A stretch of 64,000 bases of DNA from Acidobacteriota bacterium (GCA_965237715.1 CBDEGM010000002.1:67234-131233); one strand, 5' to 3'; positions 7,552 through 60,100 are shown, counted from the first letter of the stretch. Notes: generated by a model from the letters alone, not told the origin. A program made the numbers and translations.

Positions 7552-7612
7552 CGGATCATTTCTTCACTTCGCTCAGGTGAAGGCGACGCCGTTGTAGTAG
7601 AGGTGGTGTGAG
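7534..7612. repeat. Partial copy (left half, inverted) of MITE family 2
   Basis: gatcatttcttcacttcgctcaggtgaaggcgacgccg...gagaaatgcgg is the reverse complement of the conserved core ...cggcgtcgccttcacctgagcgaagtgaagaaatcatcc found at 25798-26030 and 41083-41290. Confidence 0.5.
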
Positions 7613-7629
7613 AAATGCGGGTTAATAAC

Positions 7630-10295: not shown

Positions 10296-10546
10296 TAGAA
10301 AATTGCCCAGGTTGTAGGCCAAGACAAACAGAGCCAACCTCACCTGATTCGGGACAAAGCGCTGGCAGGACAGGCGAGTCCAGTGCAACGCATACTTGCC
10401 TTCCTTGATCCACTGCTCGGCTGTGCCACGACCGTTATAGAAGTGAACCACCCCGGGTGTTAATGCTCACTGAGAACCGTAGTTTTTTGGACACCCGCCG
10501 GTAGTTAACTCAACATCATCCGCACCGCAGGTGCGCGTTTCATCAT

Positions 10547-10577
10547 CCGCGCTTGAAAAGCGCGGGGCCATTTTTTC
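10547..10577 (+). terminator. Intrinsic-terminator-like hairpin plus T-run inside the IS21 left arm
   Basis: ccgcgc ttgaaaa gcgcgg forms a 6-bp stem, followed by ggcca tttttt. Confidence 0.45.
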
Positions 10578-10747
10578 CTGAACAGTTGGTGTAGTGTCTG
10601 GGGGCCAAAGGTGGAAAGGACCTCGACCCTTTGACCGAGAATCGAGGTCCGGTTGTGGCAACCCCGTTACAAGTGGAGAACCACCGCAGACTTCACTGTA
10701 GCCTGTCATGATCCTGGGCTGTTGTCCAGTTCCGCCGGGACTGGACT

Positions 10748-11191
10748 ATGGCCGATCCGCTGGTTGTTTTCCGCCTCCGCTCGTGCCGCGCTGCAGGCTG
10801 CGGTGCACTGTTTTGGATCTGTCGCCGTTGCGGCCGAGGCCATCGCTATTGCAGTGTGCGCTGTCGGCAACAAGCGCGCCGCCAGCAGTGCCGGGAAGCC
10901 AATCGGCGGCATCAACAGTCCCCCGGGGGGCGACTGGATCATCGAGACCGTCAGCGCGCGTATCGGCGGCGGCCGGAGCGCGTGACGGATCAAGGTAGAC
11001 GCGAGGATCGCATCTTCGTCAGCATGGCTGCCGTAGCCTCCCTCCAGTTCTCCCTGCCGGGAAAGGAGGGGGAGCCTCGAAAGGAGCGCCATGTCCCATC
11101 CCATGGGGAGCGTCCCCGCCGTTTTCGGGTTCGCTGTGTCGTGTGTGGTCGGTCCGGCCACTGGATCCATCTGTTTCGGGAAGGAGGGTGA
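10748..11191 (+). CDS. Hypothetical Cys-rich small protein (zinc-ribbon-like C-x4-C...C-x2-C...C-x3-C) upstream of istA; possibly an IS21 passenger, or spurious
   Basis: 147 aa containing SCRAAGCGALFWICRRCGRGHRYCSVRCRQQ. Coding potential is uncertain in this high-GC region, and it overlaps a 400-aa antisense ORF that I judge spurious. Confidence 0.25.
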   Translation: MADPLVVFRLRSCRAAGCGALFWICRRCGRGHRYCSVRCRQQARRQQCREANRRHQQSPGGRLDHRDRQRAYRRRPERVTDQGRREDRIFVSMAAVASLQFSLPGKEGEPRKERHVPSHGERPRRFRVRCVVCGRSGHWIHLFREGG

Positions 11192-11194
11192 AGC

Positions 11195-12679
11195 ATGATC
11201 GATCGAGAACTGCTCGCCCGAATCCGCCATCTTTTCCATGCCGAACATTGGAAGATCGGGACCATTGCTGATCACTTGGGGCTTCACTGGGAGACCGTGC
11301 GCCAGGCTCTCCAGACCGATCGCTTCAATCGCCAGAAGATGGAACGGCCCCGTCTGACCGATCCCTACCTTCCCTTTATCCGAGAGACCCTGGAGCGCTA
11401 CCCTCGGCTTCGTGTCACGCGTCTGTTCGAGATGCTGCGCGCCCGGGGCTACACGGGCTCGGTCGTGCAGTTGCGGCGCGTGGTGGCCACGCTGCGCCCC
11501 ACCCCTCGGGAGGCCTTCCTGCGTCTGCGGACCTTCCCGGGGGAGGCGGGTCAAGCCGACTGGGCGCACTTCGGTAAAGTCCGGGTGGGCCGTGCCGAGC
11601 GCATCCTGTCCTGCTTTGTGTTCACCCCCTCCTATTCGCGGGCGCTGTTTCTGGAGTTTTGTTTTGACCAGCAAATGGAAAACTTCCTGCGCGCTCACAT
11701 CCACGCCTTCGAAGACATCGGTTGTCCACGCACCATCCTGTACGACAACACCAAAAGCGTCGTGTTGGAACGTCGGGGCGAGGCTGTTCACTTTCATCCG
11801 CGCCTGTTGGAGCTGGCCGCCCATTATCACTTTGCGCCACGCCCCTGCCACCCCTACCGGGCTTCCGAGAAAGGGCGCGTCGAAAGAGCCATCTCCTATG
11901 TGCGCCATTCCTTCTTCGCCGCCCGTCCCTTTAGCACGCTCTCAGACTTCAACCGTCAAGCGCTCCTCTGGCGCGACCAGGTAGCGCATCGTCGGCCCTG
12001 GCCCGGCGGCGATGGGCGCACCGTCGAGGAAGTGTGGGAGGAAGAAAAAGCCTTCCTTCTTCCCTTGCCGGCTCATCGCCTGGAAACCGATCTGGTTCTG
12101 CCGGTCCGCTCCCGCAAAACCATCTACATCCGTTTTGATTTAAACGACTATTCGATCCCGCCTTCGGCCGTGGGCCGGCCCCTGACACTGGTGGCCTCCG
12201 AGCAGACGGTGCGCATTTTGGACGGAAGCACCGAGATCGCCCGCCATCTCCGCTCCTATGACCGCCACGACGTCCGCACCGATCCGGCTCACCAGGAAGC
12301 GCTGCTGGCGGAAAAACGCCAGGCGCTGGGGGCCACCCCCGGTGGCCGACTGCTGGCCGCCGTTCCGGAAACGGAAACCTTGCTGGACGAGGCCTTTCAG
12401 CGCGGAGAGCCCACCGGCCGCCAGACGGCCAAGCTGGTGGAACTCTTGGATCTCTATGGGGCCGAAGAGCTGCAGGCGGCGGTGCGTGAAGCCCTGCAAC
12501 GGGGCACCCCGCGCGCCGCCTCGGTGGCCTTTCTGCTGGGCCGGCGCCAGCGCGCTCAGGGGCGAAAGGCGCCTCTACCCATTGAGTTGCGCCAGCGTCC
12601 CGAACTGGAGGACCTCTATGTCCAATCCCATAACCCGGAGACCTATGACGAACTGGCTTCCGATGACGACGAATCCTGA
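11195..12679 (+). CDS. istA: IS21-family transposase IstA
   Basis: 494 aa with an N-terminal HTH, a DDE integrase core, and an acidic C-terminus (DDDES). GGAGGG lies 8 nt upstream of the ATG. Confidence 0.85.
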
Positions 12680-13427
12680 TCTGATGCAGCTTTTGCACAA
12701 GACCGGTCTGGTGACGCTCGCCGGTGAGCTGGAGGATTTTCTGGCCCGCGCCACCAAGGGGCGCTGGTCCCCCCGTCAGATCTTGGAGGAACTGGCTCGT
12801 CGGGAGCATGAGGAGCGAGCCCAACGCAGTCTCAAGCGGCGTCTGCGCCTGGCCAAGATCGGCCGCTTCAAGCCGATGGATGACTTTGACTGGAACTGGC
12901 CGACCCGGATCGACCGGGAAGCCATTGAGCGCGCCTTTACCCTGGACTTTATCCAGGAAGGCCGCAACCTCGTCTTACTGGGTACCAACGGCCTGGGAAA
13001 AACCATGATCATCAAGAATCTGGCTTACCAGTCCGTCCTGGCCGGCTACTCTGTGCTCTTTCGAACCGCCTCGGAGATTCTCGACGACCTGCAATCGGAG
13101 GCGCCGGAACTGCAGCGCCGCAAGCTGAAAAAATACGCGCGCCCGCAGGTGCTCTACCTCGATGAAGTCGGCTGTCTCACCTACGACAGTGAGGCCGCCG
13201 ACCTGCTCCATGAAATCGTCAACCGGCGCTATGAGTGCCGGTCGCTCGTGCTGACCTCCAACAAAGCCTTTAAGGAGTGGAATAGCGTCTTTCCCCAATC
13301 CGGCTGCTTGATTGCGCTTCTGGACCGTCTCACCCACCATGCTGACGTCACTGTGATGGAGGGGCAAAGCTACCGCGTGCGGGAAAGCGAGCAGGAAGCG
13401 GCCGCCCGTCGCAAGAAAACAAGATGA
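12663..13427 (+). CDS. istB: IS21-family helper ATPase IstB
   Basis: The start ATG at 12663 (alternatively 12645) overlaps the istA stop. Walker [13 protein letters not shown] and Walker B VLYLDEVG are present. The 389-aa track ORF is an upstream extension in the same frame. Confidence 0.8.
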
Positions 13428-13803
13428 GCACTCCCGTCCAGCGTCGCGCTCATATCCAGACCCTCTTGGCGGATTATCTCGAACTTCCCCATACGCCCAC
13501 TCGAGCACGCCCGCCGGATCGGCGACTCGCCGCTCACTTCTATGACCGCGCTATCCCTCTGGCCACCGTCCAGGATGCCTTCCTGGTGGCGACCAGCCGC
13601 CGTCTTTTCCGAGACCCAGCGCTTCCTCGACTTTCTCCCATTCGCTCCCTTTACTACTTCCTCCCCATTGTCGAAGAGTTGCTTCAGTATCCGCTCCCCC
13701 ACGGTTACGCTCAGTATCTCGAACGCAAACCACGCGCCCATCACAAGCCCAAGGAGGGGCACCCCATGGAAAAACCCGTTGATCGAGGTTCGCCACCCGG
13801 CGT

Positions 13804-14864
13804 GTGTTCAGAAAAGTTCAGATCCTCGTGATCGCTAACAGGCCGGACTTGGGGACACGACTGGAATCTGGTCACATCGACATTCCCAGGATGAAGGAGG
13901 GGGGCCTTGACGCCCAGTTCTTTGCGGCCTGGATCGATTCTCCTTACCGGGGACCTGCGGCTACCAAACGGGCCCTTCAGTTAGTCGATGTCTTCCACAG
14001 GGTGTTGGAACAATATCCTGATGAGATCGTCCTCGCACTCAACAGCTCCGATATTAAGCGGGTGTCGGGCGAAGGGAAGTTGGCTGCGCTGCTGGGAATC
14101 GAAGGAGGACATGCTATTGATGGTGATCTGGGGATGTTGAGGATATTCCACCAACTGGGTGTTCGTTACATGACGCTGACCTGGTCCAATAGCAACGCGT
14201 TTGCCGACTCCTCGGGGGACAAGCCTCGCTGGAACGGGTTGAACGAGCTGGGGAGAGCAGTTGTGGCCGAAATGAACCGCATTGGAATGATGGTTGACAT
14301 TTCCCACGTAGCGATGAAACGTTTTGGGACGTCATAGAGGTGACCAACCAACCCGTCATCGCGTCACATTCTTCCGCACGGGCCCTTCAAGACGTACCGA
14401 GGAATATGAGCGATGATATGCTCAAGGCGGTGGCGCGCAATGGTGGGGTGGTGGGAATCAATTTCTATTCTGCATTTCTCAGCCCCAGCTACACGCGGCA
14501 AACTCGCCAGGCCCGCTCCCCACGACCTAGTGTGGGAGAACTGCTGAGAAGGTTTGACGGAGATGTGGACCGCGTCGCTTCAGAGCGCTACAAAATCGGG
14601 CAGGCTCCTTCCCCCGTTGTGCCTCCTCCCTTGGACGCGCTGATTGATCACATTGACCATGTAGCCAGAGTTGCGGGGATAGAGCACGTCGGTCTGGGCT
14701 CAGACTTCGATGGAGTGGATTCGCTCCCTGACGGCATGCGCGACGTCAGGGATCTTCCCAAGATCACCGAAGCGCTGCTCCAGCGAGGATACACGAGAGG
14801 GGAGATTCGCAAGATCCTTGGGGAGAACTTCCTCCGGGTTCTTCAGGAAGTGACCGGTAGCTGA
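13804..14864 (+). pseudogene. Membrane dipeptidase (peptidase M19, renal dipeptidase family) disrupted by a 1-nt deletion at about 14309-14312
   Basis: ORF 13804-14337 ends ...VDISHVAMKRFGTS*. The neighbouring frame reads SDETFWDVIEVTNQPVIASHSSARAL and continues to 14864. Restoring one A in gtaagc rejoins ISHVSDETFWDV, a conserved M19 motif. Confidence 0.7.
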
Positions 14865-14906: not shown

Positions 14907-15827
14907 TTATCCAATCAGTCCGAATTCGACTTCGGTCACGCTCTTTAAAGCATCGTGCATATACTTCTTGATCTTGGCGACCAATGCCTTCTCGCTCAAT
15001 CGAACCGCTTCCCGTGTGACGCCAAACTGATCGCCGATTTCCTGGAGTGTTTTCGGGTCTTCGGCGATCAGGCGTTCCTTGAGAATGGCCTTTTCCCGCT
15101 TGTTGAGGCTCTGCGAAAATTCCTTAAGCTTTTCATTGAACAACTTCTTAAGCTCTCCTCGAGCCAGTTTTTCATCGATGAGTTCCTCGGCCGCGCTCAA
15201 ATTGTCCAGGTATGTTGTCGATTCCTCATGATTGATGTAACCATCGAGCCTTAAATCCCTCGATTGGATCGCCTGATCTATTTCGCGAACGTCCTCCAAA
15301 GGGACTTTCAGCCGCTTTGCGATCAAAGCCGGATCGGGATCAATTCCTTGTAGCCGAAGTTTTTCTTTCTCCCGACGCAGGTTAAAGAGTAACTTGCGCC
15401 TGGTGTTGGTTGTTCCCGCACGGACGATCCGGAAATTGTCCAGGATGAACTTGATGATATATGCCTTGATCCACCAAGTCGCATAGGTAGGAAGACGGGC
15501 CCCTTTGTACGGGTCAAAGCGTCGTACCGCTTCCATGAGGCCGACGTTCCCTTCCTGGATCAGATCCAGAACGTTGAAATAAACGCGGTTGTAGAGCATG
15601 GCGATTTTCACCACCAGTCTCAGATTGGCGGTGATCAGCCGATGGGCGGCGCGCTGGTCGCCCTTTTCTTGATAGAGCGTTGCCAGCCGTTGTTCTTCTT
15701 CCGGAGTCAGTGGCTCAAACAGCTTGATTTCCAACAGGTATCTCTGCAGCGGCTCGAGCCGCACCAGTTTTCCCTGTTTCTGGAGACCTTTCTTCGCTTC
15801 CTGCTGCAGCGGCTCTTTTTCTGGCAT
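14907..15827 (-). CDS. Sigma-70 family RNA polymerase sigma factor, RpoH-like (sigma-32)
   Basis: Region 2 (DLIQEGNVGLMEAVRRFDP), an RpoH-box-like TRRKLLFNLRREKEKL, and region 4 (TLQEIGDQFGVTREAVRLSEKALVAKIK). The start is placed at the internal MPEKEP (15827); the track ORF extends to 15941. Confidence 0.7.
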   Translation of the reverse strand: MPEKEPLQQEAKKGLQKQGKLVRLEPLQRYLLEIKLFEPLTPEEEQRLATLYQEKGDQRAAHRLITANLRLVVKIAMLYNRVYFNVLDLIQEGNVGLMEAVRRFDPYKGARLPTYATWWIKAYIIKFILDNFRIVRAGTTNTRRKLLFNLRREKEKLRLQGIDPDPALIAKRLKVPLEDVREIDQAIQSRDLRLDGYINHEESTTYLDNLSAAEELIDEKLARGELKKLFNEKLKEFSQSLNKREKAILKERLIAEDPKTLQEIGDQFGVTREAVRLSEKALVAKIKKYMHDALKSVTEVEFGLIG

Positions 15828-16037
15828 GCTGGGACAGGACACTAGCTTACCATTTTTGCTGTTTTTGGTTGTTTTTGGTGACACGCACGGGATTCGCTTC
15901 AGAAGCCGCGTAGATACTGCATCGGTATTGGAGGCTGGCACCTAATTACGGGACAAATCTTTGACAGCTCAACAAGGTGAGGTAGTAAGAAACGCATAAA
16001 GATGTCTACATCCCGACCGACTGAATTTAGGAGCGTG

Positions 16038-21279: not shown

Positions 21280-22713
21280 GAGGCTGCCCCAAACTCAGTT
21301 GAAAGTGAAGGGCGGTTCAGGTTGAGCACGATCTTAAGCCACCTTTCGTTTGGCGTCCATAGAAACCTCGTCTCTGAGTTTGGCTTTCAGCATCCAGAGG
21401 TCCTGGTAGCCCTGGATGCGCCGGAAGTTCTTCTCCGTCTCCAGGAAGGCTGAGGCGACCCAGCGCAGCACCATCTGGCTATCTTTCCAGCGGCTCACTC
21501 GGCGGGTCCGCATCCTCACGCCAGAGTGAGGGCTTTCAATCAGGTTGGTGCTGGCCAGACACAAGCGCAGGGAGGAAGACAACTCGAGTCGATTGATGGT
21601 GAAGGTCTCTTCCAGACCTTCTCGCAGGCTAGCTGCCGCATCGGGATGCAGCCCTTCGAGCCACTCCGCCTGCTTTCTGAGCCGAACCCTCCCTTCTTCC
21701 CAGGGCAGCCGATAAGCAGCCTGCATCACTGACTTGACTTGCTCGGCCAGATCGTCCGGCAATCGATCGCACACGTTGCGAATCTTATGACGACGACATC
21801 TCTGCACCGGACTGCCCTTGCCAAAGACCTTGTCAATGGCACATCGCAGGGCCCTGGAGCCGTCAATCACAAACAGATAGCGTCGCCCGGAATCCAGGCC
21901 TCGCTCCACCAGGTCTTCCAGCAAGGAGGTAGCGGTGGCGGCGTTTTCACTGGCCCCTTCCCGCAGCCCCAGCACGTGCTTTTGGCCCTCCGAGTCCACG
22001 CCGGCGGCACAGATCACGTGGTGCTCGCCAAAGACCAGGCCGTCGATGTAGATGATCAGAAACTCAACGTCATCAAAGTGTCGCTCGGCCAGCTGCTCCA
22101 GCTGCTGGCCGCTCTGCTCAATGAACTGACGGCTCACGGACGATTTGCTGACTCCCACCGTGTCGGCCATCTGGGGGATCACGCGGCTGTAGTGGCGCGT
22201 GGAAACGTTGCACGTCAAGATCTCCAGCATGCGGCTGCCCAGCTCCCCGTTACGGTTGATCGCCTCATAGGCGGGGATCTCCACCTCCCCGCCTCGACCT
22301 TGGCCTTTCTTGCGCAGCCGTGGCTTTCGAACCCGCACTTGCCGCTCCGAAAGTCTGACTCGCCCTGGCTGAGTGCCGTACCAAACGACCTGCTTGCCTG
22401 GGCGCCCTTGTTGCTTTTCGCCGGCGACACTTCGGGCAGAAAGCTGCAAGACCGCTTCCATGCTCGCTCGCCCCAGGATGTCGATCAACTCGTCAATGGC
22501 CATCCGGGAGGCTTCGATCAGCTCCACCATCGGGAGCAACAGTTGCCCGTTCTGGGCCAGATAATCAGCCAGCCCCTGACTGTTCTTCCGGGTGACAATT
22601 CGATATGATTTCTTCATGGCGGTTCCTCCTTAAAAGGTTGTTGACCAACCCGATTCTAACGAGTCGGTCGGACGAACCGCCTCTCAACTTTCAACTAAAC
22701 CCGGGACAGTCTC
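21280..22713 (-). mobile_element. IS256-family copy 2 with a perfect 8-bp target duplication cccggctc
   Basis: Same termini as copy 1. Direct repeats at 21272-21279 and 22714-22721. Inserted between thrC and lutA. Confidence 0.85.
21334..22617 (-). CDS. IS256-family transposase (copy 2)
   Basis: 427 aa, differing at 2 residues from copy 1. Confidence 0.85.
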   Translation of the reverse strand: MKKSYRIVTRKNSQGLADYLAQNGQLLLPMVELIEASRMAIDELIDILGRASMEAVLQLSARSVAGEKQQGRPGKQVVWYGTQPGRVRLSERQVRVRKPRLRKKGQGRGGEVEIPAYEAINRNGELGSRMLEILTCNVSTRHYSRVIPQMADTVGVSKSSVSRQFIEQSGQQLEQLAERHFDDVEFLIIYIDGLVFGEHHVICAAGVDSEGQKHVLGLREGASENAATATSLLEDLVERGLDSGRRYLFVIDGSRALRCAIDKVFGKGSPVQRCRRHKIRNVCDRLPDDLAEQVKSVMQAAYRLPWEEGRVRLRKQAEWLEGLHPDAAASLREGLEETFTINRLELSSSLRLCLASTNLIESPHSGVRMRTRRVSRWKDSQMVLRWVASAFLETEKNFRRIQGYQDLWMLKAKLRDEVSMDAKRKVA

Positions 22714-25797: not shown

Positions 25798-26030
25798 CTG
25801 ACCTGCATTTCTCATCACCCCCCTACTGCATCGGCGTCGCCTTCACCTGAGCGAAGTGAAGAAATCATCCGTCTGGACGGCGTTGCGCTCGTTCGGCCTC
25901 CTAGACTTACTGCGAGAGTACGCCTGCGGGGGCCTCGGTCGCGCCTTGTCCGGCCGGCCCTTCCGCCGCGTGACACGAGTGTCTTGACACGAGTGTCTCG
26001 TGACGAGCAGTGATGAGAAATGCAGGTCAG
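25798..26030. repeat. MITE-like element, family 2, with 21-bp perfect terminal inverted repeats ctgacctgcatttctcatcac
   Basis: 25798-25818 is the reverse complement of 26010-26030. The core ...ctactgcatcggcgtcgccttcacctgagcgaagtgaagaaatcatccgtc... is shared with 41083-41290 and partly with 7534-7612 and 43417-43598. It overlaps the stop codon of the downstream gene. Confidence 0.7.
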
Positions 26031-26956: not shown

Positions 26957-28391
26957 GGAGGCTGCCCCAAACTCAGTTGAAAGTGAAGGGCGGTTCAGGT
27001 TGAGCACGATCTTAAGCCACCTTTCGTTTGGCGTCCATAGAAACCTCGTCTCTGAGTTTGGCTTTCAGCATCCAGAGGTCCTGGTAGCCCTGGATGCGCC
27101 GGAAGTTCTTCTCCGTCTCCAGGAAGGCTGAGGCGGCCCAGCGCAGCACCATCTGGCTATCTTTCCAGCGGCTCACTCGGCGGGTCCGCATCCTCACGCC
27201 AGAGTGAGGGCTTTCAATCAGGTTGGTGCTGGCCAGACACAAGCGCAGGGAGGAAGACAACTCGAGTCGATTGATGGTGAAGGTCTCTTCCAGACCTTCT
27301 CGCAGGCTAGCTGCCGCATCGGGATGCAGCCCTTCGAGCCACTCCGCCTGCTTTCTGAGCCGAACCCTCCCTTCTTCCCAGGGCAGCCGATAAGCAGCCT
27401 GCATCACTGACTTGACTTGCTCGGCCAGATCGTCCGGCAATCGATCGCACACGTTGCGAATCTTATGACGACGACATCTCTGCACCGGACTGCCCTTGCC
27501 AAAGACCTTGTCAATGGCACATCGCAGGGCCCTGGAGCCGTCAATCACAAACAGATAGCGTCGCCCGGAATCCAGGCCTCGCTCCACCAGGTCTTCCAGC
27601 AAGGAGGTAGCGGTGGCGGCGTTTTCACTGGCCCCTTCCCGCAGCCCCAGCACGTGCTTTTGGCCCTCCGAGTCCACGCCGGCGGCACAGATCACGTGGT
27701 GCTCGCCAAAGACCAGGCCGTCGATGTAGATGATCAGAAACTCAACGTCATCAAAGTGTCGCTCGGCCAGCTGCTCCAGCTGCTGGCCGCTCTGCTCAAT
27801 GAACTGACGGCTCACGGACGATTTGCTGACTCCCGCCGTGTCGGCCATCTGGGGGATCACGCGGCTGTAGTGGCGCGTGGAAACGTTGCACATCAAGATC
27901 TCCAGCATGCGGCTGCCCAGCTCCCCGTTACGGTTGATCGCCTCATAGGCGGGGATCTCCACCTCCCCGCCTCGACCTTGGCCTTTCTTGCGCAGCCGTG
28001 GCTTTCGAATCCGCACTTGCCGCTCCGAAAGTCTGACTCGCCCTGGCTGAGTGCCGTACCAAACAATCTGCTTGCCTGGGCGCCCTTGTTGCTTTTCGCC
28101 GGCGACACTTCGGGCAGAAAGCTGCAAGACCGCTTCCATGCTCGCTCGCCCCAGGATGTCGATCAACTCGTCAATGGCCATCCGGGAGGCTTCGATCAGC
28201 TCCACCATCGGGAGCAACAGTTGCCCGTTCTGGGCCAGATAATCAGCCAGCCCCTGACTGTTCTTCCGGGTGACAATTCGATATGATTTCTTCATGGCGG
28301 TTCCTCCTTAAAAGGTTGTTGACCAACCCGATTCCAACGAGTCGGTCGGACGAACCGCCTCTCAACTTTCAACTAAACCCGGGACAGTCTC
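26957..28391 (-). mobile_element. IS256-family copy 3 (1435 bp) without a target-site duplication
   Basis: Identical termini, but the flanking 8-mers differ (gggcttgc vs tggtaggg). One side is a truncated MITE and the other is a truncated DUF1800 gene. Confidence 0.85.
27012..28295 (-). CDS. IS256-family transposase (copy 3)
   Basis: 427 aa with a few substitutions relative to copies 1 and 2. Confidence 0.85.
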   Translation of the reverse strand: MKKSYRIVTRKNSQGLADYLAQNGQLLLPMVELIEASRMAIDELIDILGRASMEAVLQLSARSVAGEKQQGRPGKQIVWYGTQPGRVRLSERQVRIRKPRLRKKGQGRGGEVEIPAYEAINRNGELGSRMLEILMCNVSTRHYSRVIPQMADTAGVSKSSVSRQFIEQSGQQLEQLAERHFDDVEFLIIYIDGLVFGEHHVICAAGVDSEGQKHVLGLREGASENAATATSLLEDLVERGLDSGRRYLFVIDGSRALRCAIDKVFGKGSPVQRCRRHKIRNVCDRLPDDLAEQVKSVMQAAYRLPWEEGRVRLRKQAEWLEGLHPDAAASLREGLEETFTINRLELSSSLRLCLASTNLIESPHSGVRMRTRRVSRWKDSQMVLRWAASAFLETEKNFRRIQGYQDLWMLKAKLRDEVSMDAKRKVA

Positions 28392-41083: not shown

Positions 41084-41290
41084 TACTCCCTGCATTTCTC
41101 ATCACCCCTCTACTGCATCGGCGTCGCCTTCACCTGAGCGAAGTGAAGAAATCATCCGTCCTAACTGCGTTTCGCTCCGTCGGCCTCCTCGACGTACTGC
41201 ACGAGTACGCCTGCGGGGGCCTCGGTCGCGCGCCTTGTCAGGCCGGCTCTTCCGCCGCTTCGTGACGAGCGGTGATGAGAAATGCAGGTT
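41083..41290. repeat. MITE-like element, family 2, second copy (TIR cctgcatttctcatcac)
   Basis: 41083-41099 is the reverse complement of 41271-41287. The core matches the 25798-26030 copy. Confidence 0.65.
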
Positions 41291-43416: not shown

Positions 43417-43598
43417 AACTAGCCCGGATGATGCATAAGGTGTCGTAGCGAAGCGGCGAAAGTGCCGGCCTGAGAAGGCGTCGCGACCGAGGCCCCCGCA
43501 GGCGTACTCGTGCAGTACGTCGAGGAGGCCGACGGAGCGCAACGCAATCAGGACGGATGATTTCGCCGATGGAGTAGACACCTTATGCATCATCCGGG
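43417..43598. repeat. MITE-like element (182 bp) with 26-bp perfect terminal inverted repeats ctagcccggatgatgcataaggtgtc; its core is related to family 2
   Basis: 43417-43442 is the reverse complement of 43573-43598. The internal segment matches the right half of the 41083-41290 copy, inverted. It overlaps the 3' end of the D-aminoacylase gene. Confidence 0.65.
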
Positions 43599-52353: not shown

Positions 52354-53034
52354 TCAACTTAGATATTGTGGGTAGAGGTGCTTGAGCTTGACGCGAGCAT
52401 CCTCGATCCTAAACTGCCAATCTACTCCGATTTGCATTCGATTGCGATCTTCCCACCACGCCTGGGTGTGGCGGGTGAGTTGCTGGCGAGTTGGGATGCG
52501 ACGATCTAGGCATTGCCGGCTCAACGCGCTCAACTCGATTTCCGCCACGTTCAACCAACTGCCATGCTTGGGGGTGTAGTGAATCCGGAGCCGCTCCGCC
52601 AAGCGGCGAGCTTTTTGAGGCTCAAAGGCCTCGTAGAGCGAGCCCGCCTTGTGCGTGTTGAGGTTGTCACACACCAGGATGACCCGGGCCGCATCTGGAA
52701 AATCCTCTTCCAGGAGCTGCTGAATCTCCCGTGCCCAATCCACCTTGGTCCGCTGCTCGCGCACGCTCACTTTGCGCCAGGCCGCCAGAGGTTGAACGAA
52801 CAAAAACAGGGCCGCCGTCCCACATCTCTCATATTCGTAATCGTAGCGCTCGACCCGCTCCCCTCCGAGCGGGATCGGCTGGCGAGTTTCTCCAATCAAC
52901 TGCTGCGGCTGCTCGTCCATGCACACCACCGGATATTTCCCATCCAAGGGACGCTTGTAAACTTCCAGAACGTCTTCCATATGGGCCACGAAGTCCGCAT
53001 TCTGCCGGGGCGGGATCACCCAACACTTCCTCAA
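52354..53034 (-). CDS. IS630-family transposase DDE-domain part, OrfB
   Basis: DDE motifs VVCMDEQ, VILVCDNLNTH and SWLNVAEIELSAL. It is in a different frame from OrfA across the TTTAAAAAAAC run. Confidence 0.65.
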   Translation of the reverse strand: MRKCWVIPPRQNADFVAHMEDVLEVYKRPLDGKYPVVCMDEQPQQLIGETRQPIPLGGERVERYDYEYERCGTAALFLFVQPLAAWRKVSVREQRTKVDWAREIQQLLEEDFPDAARVILVCDNLNTHKAGSLYEAFEPQKARRLAERLRIHYTPKHGSWLNVAEIELSALSRQCLDRRIPTRQQLTRHTQAWWEDRNRMQIGVDWQFRIEDARVKLKHLYPQYLS

Positions 53035-53485
53035 GTGCGGTTTGAGGACGTTTTTTTAAAGCCTGGCGCACCGTTTCGTGGCTGATCGTCTCCACGATCT
53101 CCATCTCCACCAGCCGTTGGCTGAGCAGTCGCAGCGTCCAGCGGGCTCGTCCTTCCGGTGGCGGGCCGCAACTGAGTGCGATCATTTGCGCCTCTTGCTC
53201 TCCGTCCAGTGACTTCTCTCGCGAGAGTCGCTGTTGCTTCTTGCGGCCCAAGGCCCGCTCCAGTCCCTCTTCCACCAAACGCCGACGAACCTGCACCACT
53301 GTATTGAAGTGGCACCCAAACGCTTCTGCGATCTTCTCGTCCGTCCATCCAGGGCCGTTGGCATCCGCCTTCAACAGGATATTAGCGTGCTTGACCCGGT
53401 AGGCCTTCACTGTCCCTTTCTTGACCAGACTCTGCAACTCCTTGCGTTCTTCCTCACTAAGTCGGACCACATATCTCTTGCTCAT
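52829..53485 (-). CDS. IS630-family transposase N-terminal part (HTH/CENP-B-like), OrfA
   Basis: HTH-rich N-terminus. The reading frame decays after the A7 run at about 53046-53052. Confidence 0.65.
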   Translation of the reverse strand: MSKRYVVRLSEEERKELQSLVKKGTVKAYRVKHANILLKADANGPGWTDEKIAEAFGCHFNTVVQVRRRLVEEGLERALGRKKQQRLSREKSLDGEQEAQMIALSCGPPPEGRARWTLRLLSQRLVEMEIVETISHETVRQALKKRPQTALEEVLGDPAPAECGLRGPYGRRSGSLQASLGWEISGGVHGRAAAAVDWRNSPADPARRGAGRALRLRI

Positions 53486-53574
53486 CTTGATCCTCCTAGG
53501 TTATCGAACCAAGGCCTCTCAAGACGAGCTTTTACGCTCTGCCTCTGACTAATAAAAACAATGCTGACAGTGTA

Positions 53575-53849
53575 CTAGTACTCCCTGCCATAAATACGAT
53601 GACGTATGCGGATGGGGCTTGCGAGGAGAGGTCGCGAAGAGAGGAGGAGGCGATGCCGAGGCATCGTCGACGACGAACGACAAAGAGATCACCCGCAACC
53701 ACCATCCGCCCAAAGGGTTAGGGCGGGACGGGCCCATCTCTTTGTTGCTCCTCCTCGCCGATGTCTGGCATCGACTCGTCGTCGCGCCTCGATCTGGTCT
53801 CCGTCGCGTTCCCAACATACGTCATCGTATTTATGGCAGGGAGTACTAG
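53575..53849. repeat. MITE-like element, family 1 copy B (275 bp) with perfect 34-bp terminal inverted repeats ctagtactccctgccataaatacgatgacgtatg
   Basis: 53575-53608 is the reverse complement of 53816-53849. The core is about 85% identical to 312-534 in the inverted orientation. Confidence 0.75.
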
Positions 53850-53903
53850 CATGGTATTCTGAGCGGTTTGGACGGCTCTCGAACAAGGAGCAATCGATTA
53901 CCA

Positions 53904-54010
53904 TGAAAAGATGGATGTACGTTCTCGTATTGCTGTTGGCAATCGGGGCAGCTGCAGTCTTGGGTTACTATACGGCCATGGAAAGAGCCTGGATTCACAT
54001 CAACCAATAG
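53904..54010 (+). CDS. Possible small membrane peptide (35 aa) whose stop codon abuts the IS1595-element terminus
   Basis: AAGGAG lies 8 nt upstream of the ATG. The peptide MKRWMYVLVLLLAIGAAAVLGYYTAMERAWIHINQ has one TM segment. It may be a remnant of a disrupted gene. Confidence 0.25.
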
Positions 54011-54062
54011 GGGAATATAAGACCTACTTGACGTACATGGTAACGAGGTGTAGTTTGTTTGG

Positions 54063-54308
54063 GTGCGTTGGCAAAAATGGTCCAGATGGATTGGAGCGAA
54101 GCCAGTATCAAGGATTGCAATTATTGCGCTGGTGCCAGGGATTGTCGGTGCGATTGGCGGAGGAATCTGGGAGTACATCATGACTAGGGGACTATCAGGC
54201 TGGGTTCCGCTCTATGCAGGTCTGATTTCTGGGTTGATTTCGGGAATCGGAACCCTATTGTTTTCGTGGTATCTGGCGACGGCTCACCCTTTGGACCTGA
54301 ACCACTGA
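54063..54308 (+). CDS. Small membrane protein (2 TM), passenger
   Basis: 81 aa with two glycine-rich hydrophobic helices. Confidence 0.35.
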   Translation: MRWQKWSRWIGAKPVSRIAIIALVPGIVGAIGGGIWEYIMTRGLSGWVPLYAGLISGLISGIGTLLFSWYLATAHPLDLNH

Positions 54309-54335
54309 GAATTCTCACCTCGTAAGCCATCTGAG

Positions 54336-54662
54336 TTGGTGGCAGAAATTAACGGCCTTACCGGCATAGCCAGGCAATCCGTCATAGACCGACACGCCAA
54401 CAAATGGTTGCGTGTAGCTGGAACTGTGTACGATGTTTTCGACAAAAACCAGCTAGTAATTGTGTGTTTGGATGGTAGCGATATTGGACCTAACTACTGG
54501 TTAGAATTCGACGCTTCCGACTGGCGAGACTCGCTAAAAACACTTAATGTCGGCGACCAAATCAGGGCGACCGGGAAAATAAAATCGTTCAACTCTCTGT
54601 ATATTGTCCTTGCTCAGTGCGAGAAGGAGCAGGGGTTACACAATCTGAGCGCAATACAATGA
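54336..54662 (+). CDS. Hypothetical protein, passenger, translationally coupled to the methyltransferase (ATGA overlap)
   Basis: 108 aa. Its stop TGA overlaps the ATG of the following gene at 54659-54662. Confidence 0.4.
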   Translation: MVAEINGLTGIARQSVIDRHANKWLRVAGTVYDVFDKNQLVIVCLDGSDIGPNYWLEFDASDWRDSLKTLNVGDQIRATGKIKSFNSLYIVLAQCEKEQGLHNLSAIQ

Positions 54663-56011
54663 GCGCGCCCAACTGGGCCAACCAGACCATCTGGACCGGG
54701 GATAACCTGCCGATCATGCGGGGCACGAACTCGGAGTCGGTAGACCTTATCTACTTAGACCCCCCCTTCAACAGCAATACGAACTACGCTGCTCCCATTG
54801 GCAGCAAGGCTGCTGGAGCCGAGTTCAAGGACACCTGGACCCTCACAGACATCAACGTCGAGTGGGTGAACCTGATCGAGTCCAAGCACCCCGCTCTCCA
54901 CCGTGTCCTGTTGGCGGCGATGACTTCCAGCGACAAGTCCTATCTGATCTACATGGCCGCTCGACTTCTCGAAATCAGGAGGATTCTCAAGCCCAAAGGC
55001 TCGATCTACCTGCACTGTGACCCGACCATGAGCCACTACCTCAAACTGCTCATGGACGCGGTTTTCGGTAAACGTAAATTCAGAAACGAAATCATCTGGA
55101 AGCGCAACTCATCACATAACGACTCGAAGGCATTTGGCCGCGTGGTCGACTCGCTCCTATTCTACGGCCCGCCAATAAGGACCGATTCCGTCCGTGTCCC
55201 GCTAAGCACAGATTACACTGAGAAGTTTTACCGTCACCGGGACCACCGAGGGCTGTATCGACACGACAACATTATTCGATCCGCATCGATGGGCGAACGG
55301 CCTAACCTGACCTATGAGTACAAAGGCTTTACGCCACCCTTTGGGTGGCGAATGACCAAAGACAAGATAACGGCGCTGGACGCGGAAAACCGAATAGCTT
55401 GGTCTGCATCTGGGCGACCCTATCTGAAACGCTATTTGAGTGAGAACAAGGGGCAGGTTCCGTCGGCGATCTGGACCGATATTTCGCCAATTTCAGGCCA
55501 TGCCAAGGAACGAGTCGGCTATCCGACGCAGAAACCTGTCGCGCTACTGGCTCGCATCATCCAAGCAAGCTCCAACACGGGTGATATGGTTCTGGACCCG
55601 TTCTGCGGATGCGCCACGGCCTCCATTACGGCTCAGGGTTTACACAGGCAGTGGGTAGGAATCGATATCTCTCCCAAGGCCGCCGATCTAGTTCAACAGA
55701 GAATGCATGACGAACTGGGCCTATTTTCCAAGGTCATCCACCGCACGGATACTCCCAAACGCACGGACCTAGGAACGCTCCCTAGGTACAACTCCGATGC
55801 CAATCGAAAGGAGATCTGCGGCGATCAGGAAGGTCACTGCAACGGATGTCGGATCCACTTCGAGCTACGCAACTTGGAGGTAGGCCACATCATCTCCAAG
55901 GGCAAAGGCGGGACCGATCACATTGGAAACCTGCAACTTCTTTGTGGGAACTGTAATCGGATCAAAGGAGACCGTGGCATGGAGTACCTGAAAGCGAAGC
56001 TACAGATATGA
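54659..56011 (+). CDS. Beta-class N6/N4 DNA methyltransferase fused to a C-terminal HNH endonuclease domain
   Basis: Motif IV LDPPFNSN is N-terminal and motif I DPFCGCATAS is C-terminal, which is the beta-class order. Then CGDQEGHCNGC...VGHII...HIGNLQLLCGNCNRIKGDR forms an HNH nuclease motif. Its last 4 codons overlap the transposase gene end. Confidence 0.7.
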   Translation: MSAPNWANQTIWTGDNLPIMRGTNSESVDLIYLDPPFNSNTNYAAPIGSKAAGAEFKDTWTLTDINVEWVNLIESKHPALHRVLLAAMTSSDKSYLIYMAARLLEIRRILKPKGSIYLHCDPTMSHYLKLLMDAVFGKRKFRNEIIWKRNSSHNDSKAFGRVVDSLLFYGPPIRTDSVRVPLSTDYTEKFYRHRDHRGLYRHDNIIRSASMGERPNLTYEYKGFTPPFGWRMTKDKITALDAENRIAWSASGRPYLKRYLSENKGQVPSAIWTDISPISGHAKERVGYPTQKPVALLARIIQASSNTGDMVLDPFCGCATASITAQGLHRQWVGIDISPKAADLVQQRMHDELGLFSKVIHRTDTPKRTDLGTLPRYNSDANRKEICGDQEGHCNGCRIHFELRNLEVGHIISKGKGGTDHIGNLQLLCGNCNRIKGDRGMEYLKAKLQI

Positions 56012-57034
56012 GAAAACGACCTGACTATGGAAACGCAACCCCGGAAGACTTGGTGAGAGCTCTTCTGCGCGTGCACCGGAAGACAGCCCGTTATCGGCAA
56101 TCAGTTCCTGGTACATCAGTTGTTTCCCAGCCAAGCCCCGCACAACCCGTCTCATCTGGTGCAGAGTGTCCAGCTGGCGAAGGTTGTGCTTCCCAGCGAA
56201 CTCACGAACATAGCGATCCAGATGTTTAGGACTGATCTTGTGAAAGACTCCCGTATGCGCCCTTTTGAGCATAGACCAGAAGCTCTCGACGCCATTGGTA
56301 TACGCTTTCCCTCGCACATACTCACCAATCGAGTGCTTAACCGTCTCATGATTCGGAAGGGTGTGGTAGGTCAAAGCGTCATCGGTGTAGATTTTGGTTC
56401 CCAGCTTGACGTGCTCCATAATGAAAAGGCTCATGGTCTCAGACTTGGTATTGCGGACAACTTGGGCGGAGACTTGATTAGAGGATCGATCTTTGATCCC
56501 CGCTACAGCCATTTTGCCAGTCGGTCCACGACCACTCATCTGAGCTCTCTTGGTCTTGTTCATGTTCCTGCGCTTTCCTCCTATGTAGGTCTCATCGACT
56601 TCGACCGGGCCGGAGAAAGACGTTCCACCGTTTTTAGTTCTGGTCCAGGCTTCTCGAATTCTGTGGAGCATGAACCATGCAGCGGGTTGACTGACCCCAA
56701 TGTCGCTCGCCAACTTGGTGGAGGCGATGCTCTTCAAACTGGTCAGTTCCAGATAAATGGCCATAGCCCATTTGTGGAGCGAGAGGTTTGTTTTGGCAAT
56801 GGGCGTCCCAGTGCGGACCGAGAAATACCGCTCGCAATCTCGGCACCGATACGGCATGGGCTTTCGGTTGGGCACGGTGTAGGTATTGGTGGACCCGCAA
56901 TGCCCACAACACCTTTCCTCTGGCCACAGTGTCTTTTCAAACCACTCCTCAGCTGCTTTTTCGTTGGGGAACATGTCCATCAAGTGGATAATGTTGAGTT
57001 TCCTGCGTTGCCGGTTTCTTGTTTGTTTTCCCAT
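56000..57034 (-). CDS. IS1595-family (ISXO2-like) DDE transposase with an N-terminal zinc-ribbon
   Basis: 344 aa. N-terminal CCGHCGS...CRDCERYF zinc ribbon and a DDE_Tnp_IS1595-like core (YIGGKRRN..., YTDDALTY..., ESFWSMLKR). Confidence 0.75.
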   Translation of the reverse strand: MGKQTRNRQRRKLNIIHLMDMFPNEKAAEEWFEKTLWPEERCCGHCGSTNTYTVPNRKPMPYRCRDCERYFSVRTGTPIAKTNLSLHKWAMAIYLELTSLKSIASTKLASDIGVSQPAAWFMLHRIREAWTRTKNGGTSFSGPVEVDETYIGGKRRNMNKTKRAQMSGRGPTGKMAVAGIKDRSSNQVSAQVVRNTKSETMSLFIMEHVKLGTKIYTDDALTYHTLPNHETVKHSIGEYVRGKAYTNGVESFWSMLKRAHTGVFHKISPKHLDRYVREFAGKHNLRQLDTLHQMRRVVRGLAGKQLMYQELIADNGLSSGARAEELSPSLPGLRFHSQVVFSYL

Positions 57035-57089
57035 AGGAGTATTGTATGTCAGGAGAAGGGAAAAGTCAAGTAGGTCTTATAATCCCATT

Positions 57090-57180
57090 TTTTACCACAA
57101 AGACACCAAGATGGCACCAAGAGGATTGCTTTGTGAATCTTTGTGTCTTGGTGGTTAACAAGAACTCTTACCACAAAGCC
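57090..57180. repeat. Short dispersed motif TTTTACCACAAAGACACCAAGA, also at 61296-61352 and 62636-62672 (inverted), flanking the ABC/GT cluster
   Basis: accacaaagacaccaaga...tctttgtgtcttggtgg...cttaccacaaagccc. The same units appear in the intergenic gaps of the 57189-62627 gene cluster. Confidence 0.5.
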
Positions 57181-57188
57181 CTGCACCC

Positions 57189-60100
57189 CTACTCGGACCG
57201 AAGCGCAGGCAGCAGCGGAGAGCGCAGGGCTGCAACAGTGGCCAGCAGGGATGAGACCAGGCCCGCGGCCAGCACTGCCAGCAGCAGGCCCAGAGAAAGT
57301 CCTGGGAGCTGGCCGCCTCGAGTGGAGAGGGCCGGGGCGATCGCCAGCAGCGCACATGCTGTGCCGGTGACCAGCCCGCAGAAAAGAAGCAGGGCATTTT
57401 CGGCCGTCACCATGAGAATCAGATCTGAGGATCGGTAGCCCACGGCGCGCAGCAGGGCCAGTTCCCGCCTTCTTTCCAGGACATTGCGCAGCAAAACCGT
57501 TGCCAGCCCGAAAGTTCCCAGTACCAACCCCAGGCCTCCCAGTGTCTGGAAGGTACTCAGGTAGGTATTCTCCACACGGTGAAAGGCGGCGAGACGTTCG
57601 CTGGTGGGGACCACGTCAAAGCCAAAATCCGCAAGGCGCTCTTCCAAGATGGCGGCGGCGGCGGAAGATTTTTCGGTTGGCAGGTCGATCAGGAAGAAGC
57701 GGTAGCCGGCGGCATGCCGGTCCCGGTCCGAAAAAAGGCGCAAAAAGTTCTCCTCCGACATCAGCAGCTCTCCCTGCAACAGGCTGTCAGCCAGGGCCGC
57801 GACCAGTCGCAGCTGCACCGAACGGCCGCTGCTGAGGTAGAGGACAAACTCCTCTCCCAGCTTGAGATGCAAAACATAGGTCATGGACTTGGCGTCCGCG
57901 ATCACCGGTACCGTGCCCTCCGTCATGGGTCTGTTCAGAAGCAGCCAGGGATTGTCTCTTTCCTGGTCGGTTTCGGCCAGCGAATCCTGGAAGGTGAAAC
58001 GGCCGCTGGTCAGGAAGCCCGGGGTGGGTGCCAGAATCCTGGGATTACGGGGTTGGTAGAGATTCAAACAGCTCGTGTCATCCCCTGGACGAAGCCGAAA
58101 TCTCGCAAAAACGACATCTTCAAGAAGCTGGGAGTCGGACTCCCAATCCAGGTTCAAGGCTTCCCGACCCTGCGCCTGATTGGGATCATGAACCAGTGGA
58201 AGACGGGACTCGGCCAGGAGCGGAAAACCTCCACTGCCCGACTTGTTCTCCAAGGAGGCTTCCTGCGCCCCCTGCTTGAAGGCATCTACCGCCACGATGA
58301 TGAATGTGGCAGATGCGATCAGGGCGATACAGAGAAGGCTTCTTCCTGGACGATGTTCCACATTTCGAAAACCCAGACGGGAAACAGCCCTCCAGCCGCT
58401 CTGCTGCAGGGGCCTCGGCTTTGGTCTCCGGAACCAGGAAGCCTGGAAAAAAAGAAGGGAAACCAGCAGTAGCGTGCCGGCACCAAAAAAACCGGCTACC
58501 TCACTGATCCAATTCAAGAATGCCGCCAAAAGAAGGAGAAGGCCCAAAAGGCCAAAGATCGGCCCTCCCAAGCCGGACAGCGGAGCAGAGAGAAAGGAAG
58601 AGCGGCTGCCATGTGGGCGCTGAATACTCGAAATCTCCCCGGTCAAGAGGCTGCGTGGGGAAGCGGCTGCGAGTGAGCGCAGCGTCCAGGCAATACAGGC
58701 CAGGGCGGTCAAAATGCCTACCCCTCCACCAATCGCCAGGACTGTAGAGGTGAGATGCAGCTTCAGCAGCCGGGTTCCCACTGCGTCGACCCACCAGGTG
58801 CGCAGCCCCAGCATGATCAGGGCCCCGTAACCCCACGCTCCGAGCATTCCTAAGGCGCTCCCCACGCTTGCCAGCACAGCCCCTTCGCCTAAGAAGAGGG
58901 TGCGAATCCGGGCGGGAGGGAAACCAACTGCCCGCAGGACTCCGATCTCACGAAGGCGCTGCTCCACTCCGAGTTTGAAAAACAAACCTGCCAGCAACAG
59001 GGCAGAAACCACCAGAAAAAAGCTGAAGTAGAGAAAGTACTCTCCAAAGTCTGTGGCTCCCTGTGAGGCCTCCAGGCCCCGAGCTCTTGCCGGATAAACG
59101 GACAGACCCATCCGGGTGGGGTCGAGTGCCGCTCTCAGCCCCTGCCTGAAAGACTCAAGTGCCGAGGGAAGATCCTGCGCACCGTCCGCCGGCGAAAAGA
59201 TTCGCAGAGAGGTCAATTTTCCAAAGCGGGACCTCCACAGCTCCTGACCCTTCTGGAGGGGGATAAAGGCCTTGGGTGTGGTGCGGTATTGGTCCCAGTA
59301 CTCCTCATCGCGCCGGCCGATGAGTTGGAGGTCGATGGGAAAGGGGGGATCCCACTCCGCTACACTGTCCGAGTCTGTAATTCCCGGGTATTCGGGCGTC
59401 AGATGTGGATCAGCCGCAGGTCCCCGCATGGGGACAATTCCCGCCACCTCAAAATCAGCCGACTCGGTGATCAGGTTTCCCTCCTCCTCCCACAGGTAGT
59501 ATTCAATGGAAATCTCGTCGCCTGGCTGTGCGCCAAGGCCGCGAGCGGCCCACTCGTTGAGCCACATCGGAGCCCGGGAGAGATGTCCTGGTGTCCTGGT
59601 GTCTTTGCGGGTGAAGGTTCCGAAATCTTCCAGTCTTGTGGCCGCGATCAGCGAGTAGGGTATGGAGCGCTCGCCGAAGCGGATCGTGTTGGCGAGATAG
59701 GTGAGCACGGGAAGGGTACGCATACCCAACTGGGTCGCCGTGTTTTGAGCGCGCTTTGCAAGAGTGTCGTCGACTACCGCCCGCCCGCTTTCCAGTAAGA
59801 AACAGTTTTGCCTCTCCAACAAGCGCAGCCTGATCCCCAAATCTTCCAGTTGGACCGTCTCTTTCAAAAAGGTTTCCAGCGCAGCGGAACCCGACTGGGA
59901 ATCTTCTAGAGTGGAAGCCGGGGTCCGTTCGGAAACCAGAATGGTATTGACCTTGCCTGGCTGTTCCAGGCTTTGCTGCAGCTGTTGAAGTGAAACGAAT
60001 AAGGCTCGAACAGCGGCCTGGTCCAGACGGGTGGAAAACTCACCGAGGGCCGAAGCGGACAGCGATTCACGCGCTGTCAAACGCATGGTGCGCCCCATCT

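Follow-up and report, generated by a model that had tools for sequence, protein, structure and literature searches.

The concept of the transporter insertion sequence (IS) is established (Siguier, Gagnevin and Chandler 2009, as cited in PMC11891212), and methyltransferases are among the passenger genes listed in PMC11891212. MTnSag1 and tISCpe8 represent IS1595-family examples of such elements (PMC5704250). Furthermore, Furuta et al. (2010; PMC2853133) described a unit of Neisseria gonorrhoeae that comprises 26-bp inverted repeats, an 8-bp duplication, a Type IIG restriction-modification (RM) homologue and a COG3677 transposase-like gene. In the literature searched, no paper was found on a link between methyltransferase-HNH fusions and IS1595, none on methyltransferase-HNH fusions themselves, and none assaying any member of the family described below.

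The element analyzed here is located at positions 54010-57087 of a 64,000-nucleotide stretch of DNA (hereafter the window; GCA_965237715.1, CBDEGM010000002.1:67234-131233) from a metagenome-assembled Acidobacteriota bacterium. It is a transporter IS of the IS1595 family, i.e., an element of a known kind, and its cargo encodes a DNA methyltransferase fused to an HNH nuclease domain. Further copies were retrieved from one metagenome assembly (ENA ERZ26167216). Based on comparison of these copies and of related genes, the element is likely to be an active, multi-copy transporter IS carrying an orphan methyltransferase that is nuclease-dead and either switchable or decaying.

Boundaries and copies of the element

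The features delimiting and composing the unit are the following (positions are those of the window):
54010-54032, no strand: terminal inverted repeat at the cargo end, sequence GGGGAATATAAGACCTACTTGAC, outermost base G or T; the same end is present at 10 other copies.
54659-56011, plus strand: gene for a methyltransferase-HNH fusion of 450 amino acids (aa), Mod-like and beta-class (Pfam, NCBIfam, PADLOC).
56000-57034, minus strand: gene for an intact IS1595-family DDE transposase of 344 aa (Pfam and NCBIfam); the same protein occurs on 11 contigs.
57065-57087, no strand: terminal inverted repeat at the transposase end, sequence GTCAAGTAGGTCTTATAATCCCA, outermost base C or A.

An initial annotation of the window had proposed an IS1595-family element of about three times the minimal IS1595 size between 22-nt inverted arms. 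Family and size were borne out, and the named arms match at 21 of 22 positions. By comparison with the other copies, the ends were refined to give a unit of 3,078 bp (54010-57087), the 23-nt terminal arms of which pair at 21/23 positions and the outermost base of which differs among copies at each end. A repeat search of the window returned the same arms as 27-nt sequences (54006-54032 and 57065-57091) with 89% complementarity. Within the 64-kb window, the 17-nt core TATAAGACCTACTTGAC occurs exactly twice, and the chance expectation derived from shuffled sequences, with 3 mismatches allowed, is about 0.05 matches. A match with 3 mismatches at 16109 was dismissed as a chance occurrence and not a second element end. 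Likewise, a second related IS was sought in the other 344-aa open reading frame (ORF) of the window (14907-15941), which encodes a sigma factor unrelated in sequence to the transposase. Screening of 53400-57400 against Rfam revealed no known RNA element.

In total, ten further copies were found: L001 (the same as L172), L086, L171, L173 (partial), L174, L175, L176, L177 (the same as L179), L178 (the same as L180) and L181. Their identity to the window copy is 99.7-99.97%, and the exact methyltransferase and transposase proteins are recorded on several contigs of the assembly. Similarity among the copies starts and stops at the inverted repeats, which were found at all other copies, while the ten gene contexts differ and the neighbourhoods are unrelated. 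Moreover, all full-length copies retrieved contain the methyltransferase-HNH gene within the unit. The proposal that mobile element and methyltransferase-HNH gene move as one unit was therefore confirmed, since ten other sites share identical ends and the whole unit, with 8-bp target duplications or exchanged flanks.

These duplications are AT-rich and clean at L001 (AAAGAAAA), L171 (TAGAGATA), L175 (GAAAATAT) and L181 (TTAGGAAT), and could be reassembled from two copies each for L174/L176 and window/L178. On one contig, L174 and L176 lie approximately 110 kb apart in inverted orientation and with swapped flanks (CTTTTTAT, TTTGTAAG), the pattern that an inversion through recombination between copies leaves behind. 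No target duplication was found at the window copy, because its left flank AACCAATA pairs with the right flank of L178/L180, where the same sequence recurs. Accordingly, two insertions have recombined to give the window copy, or the assembly may have been joined through the repeat. Taken alone, the window copy without a target duplication would also fit an explanation in which the repeats are there by chance, or in which a minimal IS happens to lie next to a resident methyltransferase. This explanation was rejected as having next to no probability, since ten copies share both ends and the interior, and the duplications flank the full 3,078 bp.

Insertion also interrupted genes, one of them directly at the left boundary of the window copy:
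53903-54009, plus strand: flank outside the element, holding codons 1-35 of a T4_deiodinase-like gene interrupted by the insertion; its last 8 bases, AACCAATA, are half a target duplication.

This ORF runs on in frame, starting with AACCAATA, into the right flank of L178/L180 as a T4_deiodinase-like gene. Elsewhere, a gene of the inositol-1-phosphate-synthase type (L175) and a DUF1529 gene (L001) were probably split, as suggested by neighbouring gene calls that share a Pfam family on the two sides of the element. The protein encoded by the gene cut at the window (53903-54009 and L180:6222-6777) is a membrane-anchored T4_deiodinase-like protein, the gene of which contains an in-frame TGA within the motif FGSYT*P. 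This TGA is probably a selenocysteine codon, i.e., the gene probably encodes a bacterial deiodinase-like selenoprotein.

Transposase and related elements

The transposase matches DDE_Tnp_IS1595 (PF12762, 1.7e-36), the zinc ribbon profile PF12760 (4.5e-06) and the NCBIfam model transpos_IS1595 (NF033547, 4.7e-48). Its residues D147, D218 and E250 as well as the Cys4 zinc ribbon (C43, C46, C64, C67) are conserved among relatives. As had been noted initially, the methyltransferase stop overlaps the 3' end of the transposase gene; the two genes are convergent and share 12 bp. Upstream of the transposase, one further feature was recognized:
57041-57069, minus strand: sigma-70-like promoter, TTGACT, 17 nt, TACAAT, with the -35 box inside the inverted repeat; a consensus match only, at 10/12 positions.

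The transposase is probably expressed from this predicted promoter, which starts in the adjacent repeat. The lack of substitutions in the transposase among the copies was considered as a sign of selection and rejected as ascertainment bias, because most copies had been retrieved by exact transposase identity.

Related transposase loci numbered more than 580 in a scan covering one genome per species, and the best 80 of them (55-70% identical) served for the comparison of the clade. These 80 loci originate mostly from Acidobacteriota, Alpha- and Gammaproteobacteria and other metagenome-assembled genomes, some of which are named as sponge-derived. Most of them feature GGGGATTAT- or GGGGATTACAAAG-type ends spaced 1.6 to at least 4 kb apart, and these spans agree with multi-copy unit lengths found independently (1,681, 2,231, 2,236, 2,860, 3,150, 3,207 and 3,735 bp). 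Given this spacing of the ends, 0.6 kb or more of passenger DNA follows the transposase gene in nearly every clade member. Among the cargo that can be recognised, the methyltransferase described here forms the largest cluster; it lies directly downstream of the transposase, in either orientation, at approximately 20 of the 80 loci. Other cargo of the clade has no Pfam match or consists of a nested IS.

The methyltransferase-HNH gene and its family

The cargo protein matches the profiles N6_N4_Mtase (3e-39) and HNH (6e-11). Its assignment as a beta-class methyltransferase with a C-terminal HNH domain, already made in the initial annotation, agrees with the order of motif IV, target-recognition domain (TRD) and motif I along the chain. 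The two catalytic motifs are located as follows:
54758-54769, plus strand: motif IV DPPF, aa 34-37, encoded by GAC CCC CCC TTC with a run of seven cytosines (C7) at 54760-54766.
55595-55618, plus strand: motif I DPFCGCAT, binding S-adenosylmethionine, aa 313-320; D313, P314, F315, C318, A319 and T320 are invariant in 117 sequences.

Both DPPF and DPFCGCAT are present in the window copy and are invariant or nearly so in the 117 aligned sequences, with aa 151-285 forming a variable middle part. The enzyme is probably of the N6-adenine type, because motif IV reads DPPF; matches to NCBIfam adenine-methyltransferase models point in the same direction.

More than 8,000 homologues were detected, and among the 120 best-scoring ones listed most keep both the N6_N4_Mtase and the HNH domain at 58-73% identity. 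The best long matches in the PDB are type III Mod proteins (6k0w_B, 4zcf_A). Conservation within the family is mosaic, with aa 16-150 and 286-450 being 80-95% conserved per column and the target-recognition part (aa 151-285) only 38-60%. Some homologues, e.g., P0006, share the central region of the window protein and differ in the flanking parts, which suggests domain shuffling. PADLOC matched generic Type II and Type III methyltransferase models only, and none of its named defence systems was recognised. A phage origin was also considered and discarded, as a scan of viral contigs gave a single distant (39%) methyltransferase lacking the HNH domain.

The surroundings of homologues were screened for IS1595 transposases. 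A transposase or a fragment thereof lies within 4 kb of four out of six independent close homologues (L083, L085, L168, L169; not in L084 and L167), and of 80 distant metagenome homologues, nine have a transposase nearby. Where no IS is present, the homologues have defence genes as neighbours (CBASS, McrBC or BglII/MT-A70). This recurrent association, which extends across 32-70% transposase identity and both gene orientations, could mean that the methyltransferase-nuclease serves the element's own transposition, either by methylating ends or promoter, as Dam does for IS10/IS50, or by nicking the target. However, most elements of the clade multiply with other cargo or small proteins, the frameshifted copies described below have the same ends and in some cases clean 8-bp duplications (L175, L181), and two of the six close homologues have no IS1595 transposase within 5 kb on each side. 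Such a role in transposition was consequently regarded as highly improbable.

Two further arrangements of family members were observed. On a 3.3-Mb contig, two paralogous methyltransferase-HNH genes (L084:5001-6389 and 9931-11139) are located 3.5 kb apart beside a CBASS-like pair (patatin, SMODS), with no IS1595 transposase within 5 kb on each side. Contig ctg494416 of the assembly ERZ26167216, which also holds a copy of the element, encodes a second methyltransferase-HNH protein (L168:5001-7615) that is 68% identical, has another central region and an intact Asp-His pair, and lies beside a truncated IS1595 transposase gene, so that this assembly contains the module in two versions.

In sister elements, the same scaffold is fused to an Mrr_cat domain of the PD-(D/E)xK type (L067:8148-8660, L078:8040-8534) or to T5orf172/MUG113 (L054:7811-9121), the latter two presumably belonging to the GIY-YIG clan, so that three unrelated nuclease folds would occupy one position. 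This exchange argues that cutting matters for the family. Since sister elements carry HNH, Mrr-type or T5orf172 domains on the same scaffold, the family most likely represents a single-chain module that would either methylate or cut DNA.

A glycine in place of a conserved aspartate in the HNH domain

The nuclease part of the cargo protein corresponds to the following feature:
55838-55975, plus strand: HNH domain of the beta-beta-alpha-Me type, zinc site CxxC...CxxC; codon GGC (Gly409) at 55883-55885, where all homologues have Asp.

Residues H410, N424, N433, C394, C397, C429 and C432 are invariant in the alignment of 117 sequences and present in the window copy. The HNH motif is thus not degenerate in the sense of a missing catalytic His or Asn, and the four Cys are retained as well. 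Position 409, by comparison, is Asp in 115/115 homologues of this alignment and Gly only in the window copy and a sister copy. A pattern scan extended this result: Gly was found in all 13 element sequences retrieved outside the window, representing ten distinct copies, and Asp in 20/20 other loci. Gly409 aligns with the D of 'ELDHIV' in the Cas9 HNH domain (8d2k). In Cas9, this Asp binds the metal, and the HNH domain loses its activity when the residue is mutated. With Asp replaced by Gly in every copy, the nuclease of this element is most likely disabled, as judged from the alignments.

The initial annotation had suggested that the protein could act as a self-contained modification-restriction or anti-phage module, which is plausible for the family and doubtful for this element in view of Gly409 and the C tract described below. 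Under this explanation, the HNH domain would cut unmodified DNA despite Gly409, and the cargo would still be an active single-chain RM or anti-phage enzyme, i.e., a working defence and addiction module. The retained His410, Asn424, Asn433 and four zinc-binding Cys speak in its favour, as do the full-length ORF in at least four copies and the occurrence of the family in defence islands with exchange of nuclease folds. On the other hand, the Asp found in 115/115 homologues and aligned with the Cas9 Asp is lost only here, and half of the copies are frameshifted at DPPF. Persistence of an active enzyme in this element was therefore rated as quite improbable.

Variation of the C tract and substitutions among copies

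The cytosine tract within the DPPF codons is the only indel among the copies and the only homopolymer of at least 6 nucleotides in the element. It comprises seven cytosines in the window copy, L001, L171 and L176, eight in L174, L175, L177 and L181, ten in L086 and eleven in L178. The reading frame is kept in the C7 form and lost with C8 and C11, and C10 inserts one more Pro (DPPPF in L086), so that approximately half of the copies are frameshifted or lengthened at the DPPF codons. The C8 copies give rise to frequent calls of an N-terminally truncated 381-aa protein without DPPF, and the 90% cluster contains 19 protein variants, including forms of 245, 289, 363, 381 and 432 aa. Among the DPPF codons of 98 homologous genes, the longest C run is 2-3 in 94 genes and 5-6 in four genes, and never 7. 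The variation of the tract resembles the simple-sequence switching of phase-variable mod genes, an analogy under which expression of the methyltransferase might differ from copy to copy.

Further differences among the copies amount to at most 3 per kb, with about 6 non-synonymous and 4 synonymous changes. The window copy is the only one featuring Thr23, a position occupied by Met in 105/117 sequences, and Cys387 is shared by the window copy and six of nine other full-length copies aligned, whereas Tyr is present in 111/117 sequences.

The C-tract differences could equally be decay. In that explanation, the methyltransferase would have become functionless after loss of the nuclease, and the variants would reflect pseudogenisation of the cargo in a selfish element. 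It is in line with the 19 variants including truncated forms, the C8, C10 and C11 tracts, the substitutions at the nearly invariant positions 23 and 387, and the IS256 insertions in the leader region. However, the 450-aa frame is uninterrupted and includes all methyltransferase motifs in at least four copies, and the copies are too young to tell decay from selection, as they differ by so few positions per kb. Simple decay was considered a possible, though minor, explanation.

Proposed mode of action

In the preferred interpretation, an active transporter IS with a nuclease-dead orphan methyltransferase, the transposase would act on the two imperfect 23-bp terminal repeats and insert the 3,078-bp unit as a whole, together with its cargo, at AT-rich targets of 8 bp, the resulting copies then serving as substrates for homologous recombination. 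Specificity of the methyltransferase would be set by its variable central TRD. For the family in general, the fixed 1:1 ratio of restriction and modification may make the module safe to copy around a genome. In the element described here, the cargo would act as a solitary methyltransferase, with expression from copy to copy set by the slippery C tract.

Several observations weigh against this interpretation or limit its reach. The C-tract differences could in part be homopolymer errors of long-read assembly at approximately 10-12x coverage, and the control, seven IS256 copies without indels, is a weak one since their longest run is only C5. Gly409 might be tolerated, the catalytic His, both Asn and the zinc site being intact. 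Furthermore, Mrr_cat was matched in the sister elements with scores no better than the Pfam cut-off (about 21 bits, E 4e-4), and methylation target, nuclease activity and transposition were deduced.

The element may belong to the ISNwi1 subgroup of ISfinder, for which ends of the type ggnnatTAT, an 8-bp duplication and cargo-bearing members of 1.75-4.75 kb are characteristic; the ends GGGGAATAT / GGGATTAT of the element and GGGGATTAT / GGGGATTACAAAG of its relatives fit this pattern. IS1595 transporter IS with RM-type cargo are already known, and the element is a new member and no new class. A more far-reaching proposal would treat the recurrent partnership of IS1595 with methyltransferase-nuclease genes as a class of mobile single-chain RM modules with interchangeable nuclease heads (HNH, Mrr, T5orf172) and interchangeable TRDs, which would have spread between phyla among the Acidobacteriota, proteobacterial and further metagenome-assembled genomes retrieved. 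This organism would then harbour a multi-copy 'mobile phasevarion', a nuclease-dead methyltransferase the copies of which are turned on and off by the C tract in the catalytic-motif codons, giving rise to heritable variation of the methylome; this was judged unlikely.

Small ORFs upstream of the methyltransferase gene

Two small ORFs precede the methyltransferase gene:
54063-54308, plus strand: 81-aa ORF with two hydrophobic Gly-rich segments; GC content flat by codon position, not called as a gene.
54336-54662, plus strand: 108-aa ORF, the stop of which overlaps the methyltransferase ATG (ATGA); a single chimeric call, P0121.

The initial annotation had interpreted them as two small cargo genes, the second one translationally coupled to the methyltransferase gene. 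Coordinates and ATGA overlap were reproduced; gene status and coupling were not, the overlap being no evidence of coupling. Neither ORF belongs to a family in Pfam, NCBIfam or PADLOC, and among 5.8 billion proteins no homologue was found except the chimeric call P0121, which originates from a copy disrupted by IS256. Moreover, gene calls in the other copies include neither ORF in intact form, and tblastn of the fetched loci detected them in copies of the element only and in none of the sister elements. For the 108-aa ORF, a profile search gave a weak, sub-threshold hint of an OB-fold, and the AlphaFold2 model (single sequence) has a predicted local distance difference test (pLDDT) score of 36 and is uninformative. 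The 81-aa ORF is probably not a gene, the status of the 108-aa ORF as a gene is doubtful, and 54033-54658 most likely represents a non-coding leader sequence.

Other insertion sequences and repeats in the window

The window proved to be very rich in insertion sequences, comprising IS256-type copies, a probable IS21-type element and other transposase-like ORFs. An IS256-family (Transposase_mut) element of 1,434 bp is present in three window copies that are 99.6-100% identical (8861-10294, plus strand; 21280-22713 and 26958-28391, minus strand). The same 1,434-bp element is inserted independently in two copies of the IS1595 element, L086 and L177, with an 8-bp duplication shown at L086. These insertions interrupt the 81-aa and the 108-aa ORF in one copy each, the 81-aa ORF being the one affected in L177/L179.

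Window positions 10456-13840 are at least 99.3% identical to a stretch of the L001 contig encoding IstB_IS21 and Mu-transposase C-terminal domain proteins, and probably represent an IS21-type element common to that contig. At 52354-53485, two overlapping minus-strand ORFs may represent a frameshifted IS630-type transposase, as judged by eye from the sequence alone. They are followed in the window by a perfect 34-nt inverted repeat pair (53575-53608 and 53816-53849), the arms of which are separated by 207 nt and which could be a solo end or a small element of the non-autonomous kind. In addition, a repeat of approximately 110-200 nt, 83-95% identical among its copies, occurs at 41089-41260, 25802-26000, 43451-43564 and 7550-7625, and also near the element copies L171, L175, L176 and L177. 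It may be a small non-autonomous repeat element.

Comparison with known systems

The element provides a clean case of a DNA-modification gene multiplying as IS cargo, in which 11 or more copies are known, insertion sites have been mapped and products of recombination are documented. It also points to a large family of more than 8,000 homologues, most of the best-scoring ones having a C-terminal nuclease, that is strongly linked to IS1595 and may represent a compact RM system safe at varying copy number. If C-tract switching and nuclease loss are real, a selfish restriction module would have been domesticated into a variable epigenetic switch. Otherwise, the element is an ordinary, prolific transporter IS that helps in annotating genomes of this kind and in understanding how they were rearranged.

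Compared with IS1595 transporter IS (ISNwi1 subgroup as listed in ISfinder; MTnSag1, tISCpe8), the element shares the single zinc-ribbon DDE transposase, repeats of approximately 20-25 bp, the 8-bp duplication and the position of passengers within the repeats and downstream of the transposase. It differs in its cargo, which is a methyltransferase-HNH gene and not a resistance gene, an origin of transfer (oriT) or a regulator, and in being present in at least 11 copies in one organism. The units described by Furuta in 2010 (PMC2853133) likewise contain RM genes within short repeats together with a transposase-like gene and an 8-bp duplication. However, the Neisseria unit is a single copy of uncertain mobility with an apparently inactive transposase and a gamma-class Type IIG enzyme, whereas the element analyzed here has an intact transposase, many copies and a beta-class enzyme with C-terminal HNH domain.

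Single-chain Type IIC/IIG enzymes (MmeI, Eco57I, BcgI-type) resemble the family in combining nuclease and methyltransferase in one chain, probably also in the use of a shared recognition module. The characterised enzymes feature an N-terminal PD-(D/E)xK nuclease and a gamma-class methyltransferase, whereas the protein described here is beta-class and Mod-like, with the nuclease being C-terminal and of the HNH type without the metal-ligand Asp. CcrM and YhdJ show the same N6_N4_Mtase fold, NCBIfam matches to PRK11524/YhdJ and CcrM were obtained, and no separate restriction gene is located nearby. Unlike these enzymes, the methyltransferase of the element is mobile and fused to HNH, and its scores are far below the equivalog cut-offs (102 vs. 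292 and 74 vs. 830), so that it is not an orthologue of YhdJ or CcrM. The Type III Mod proteins (EcoP15I, Helicobacter pylori) and the phase-variable mod genes ('phasevarions') have the same beta-class motif order, a central TRD and a frame-changing tract within the ORF. In contrast to Type III Mod, which has a Res partner, the element encodes an HNH domain fused to the methyltransferase instead, and its tract varies between paralogous copies and lies in the codons of the catalytic motif.

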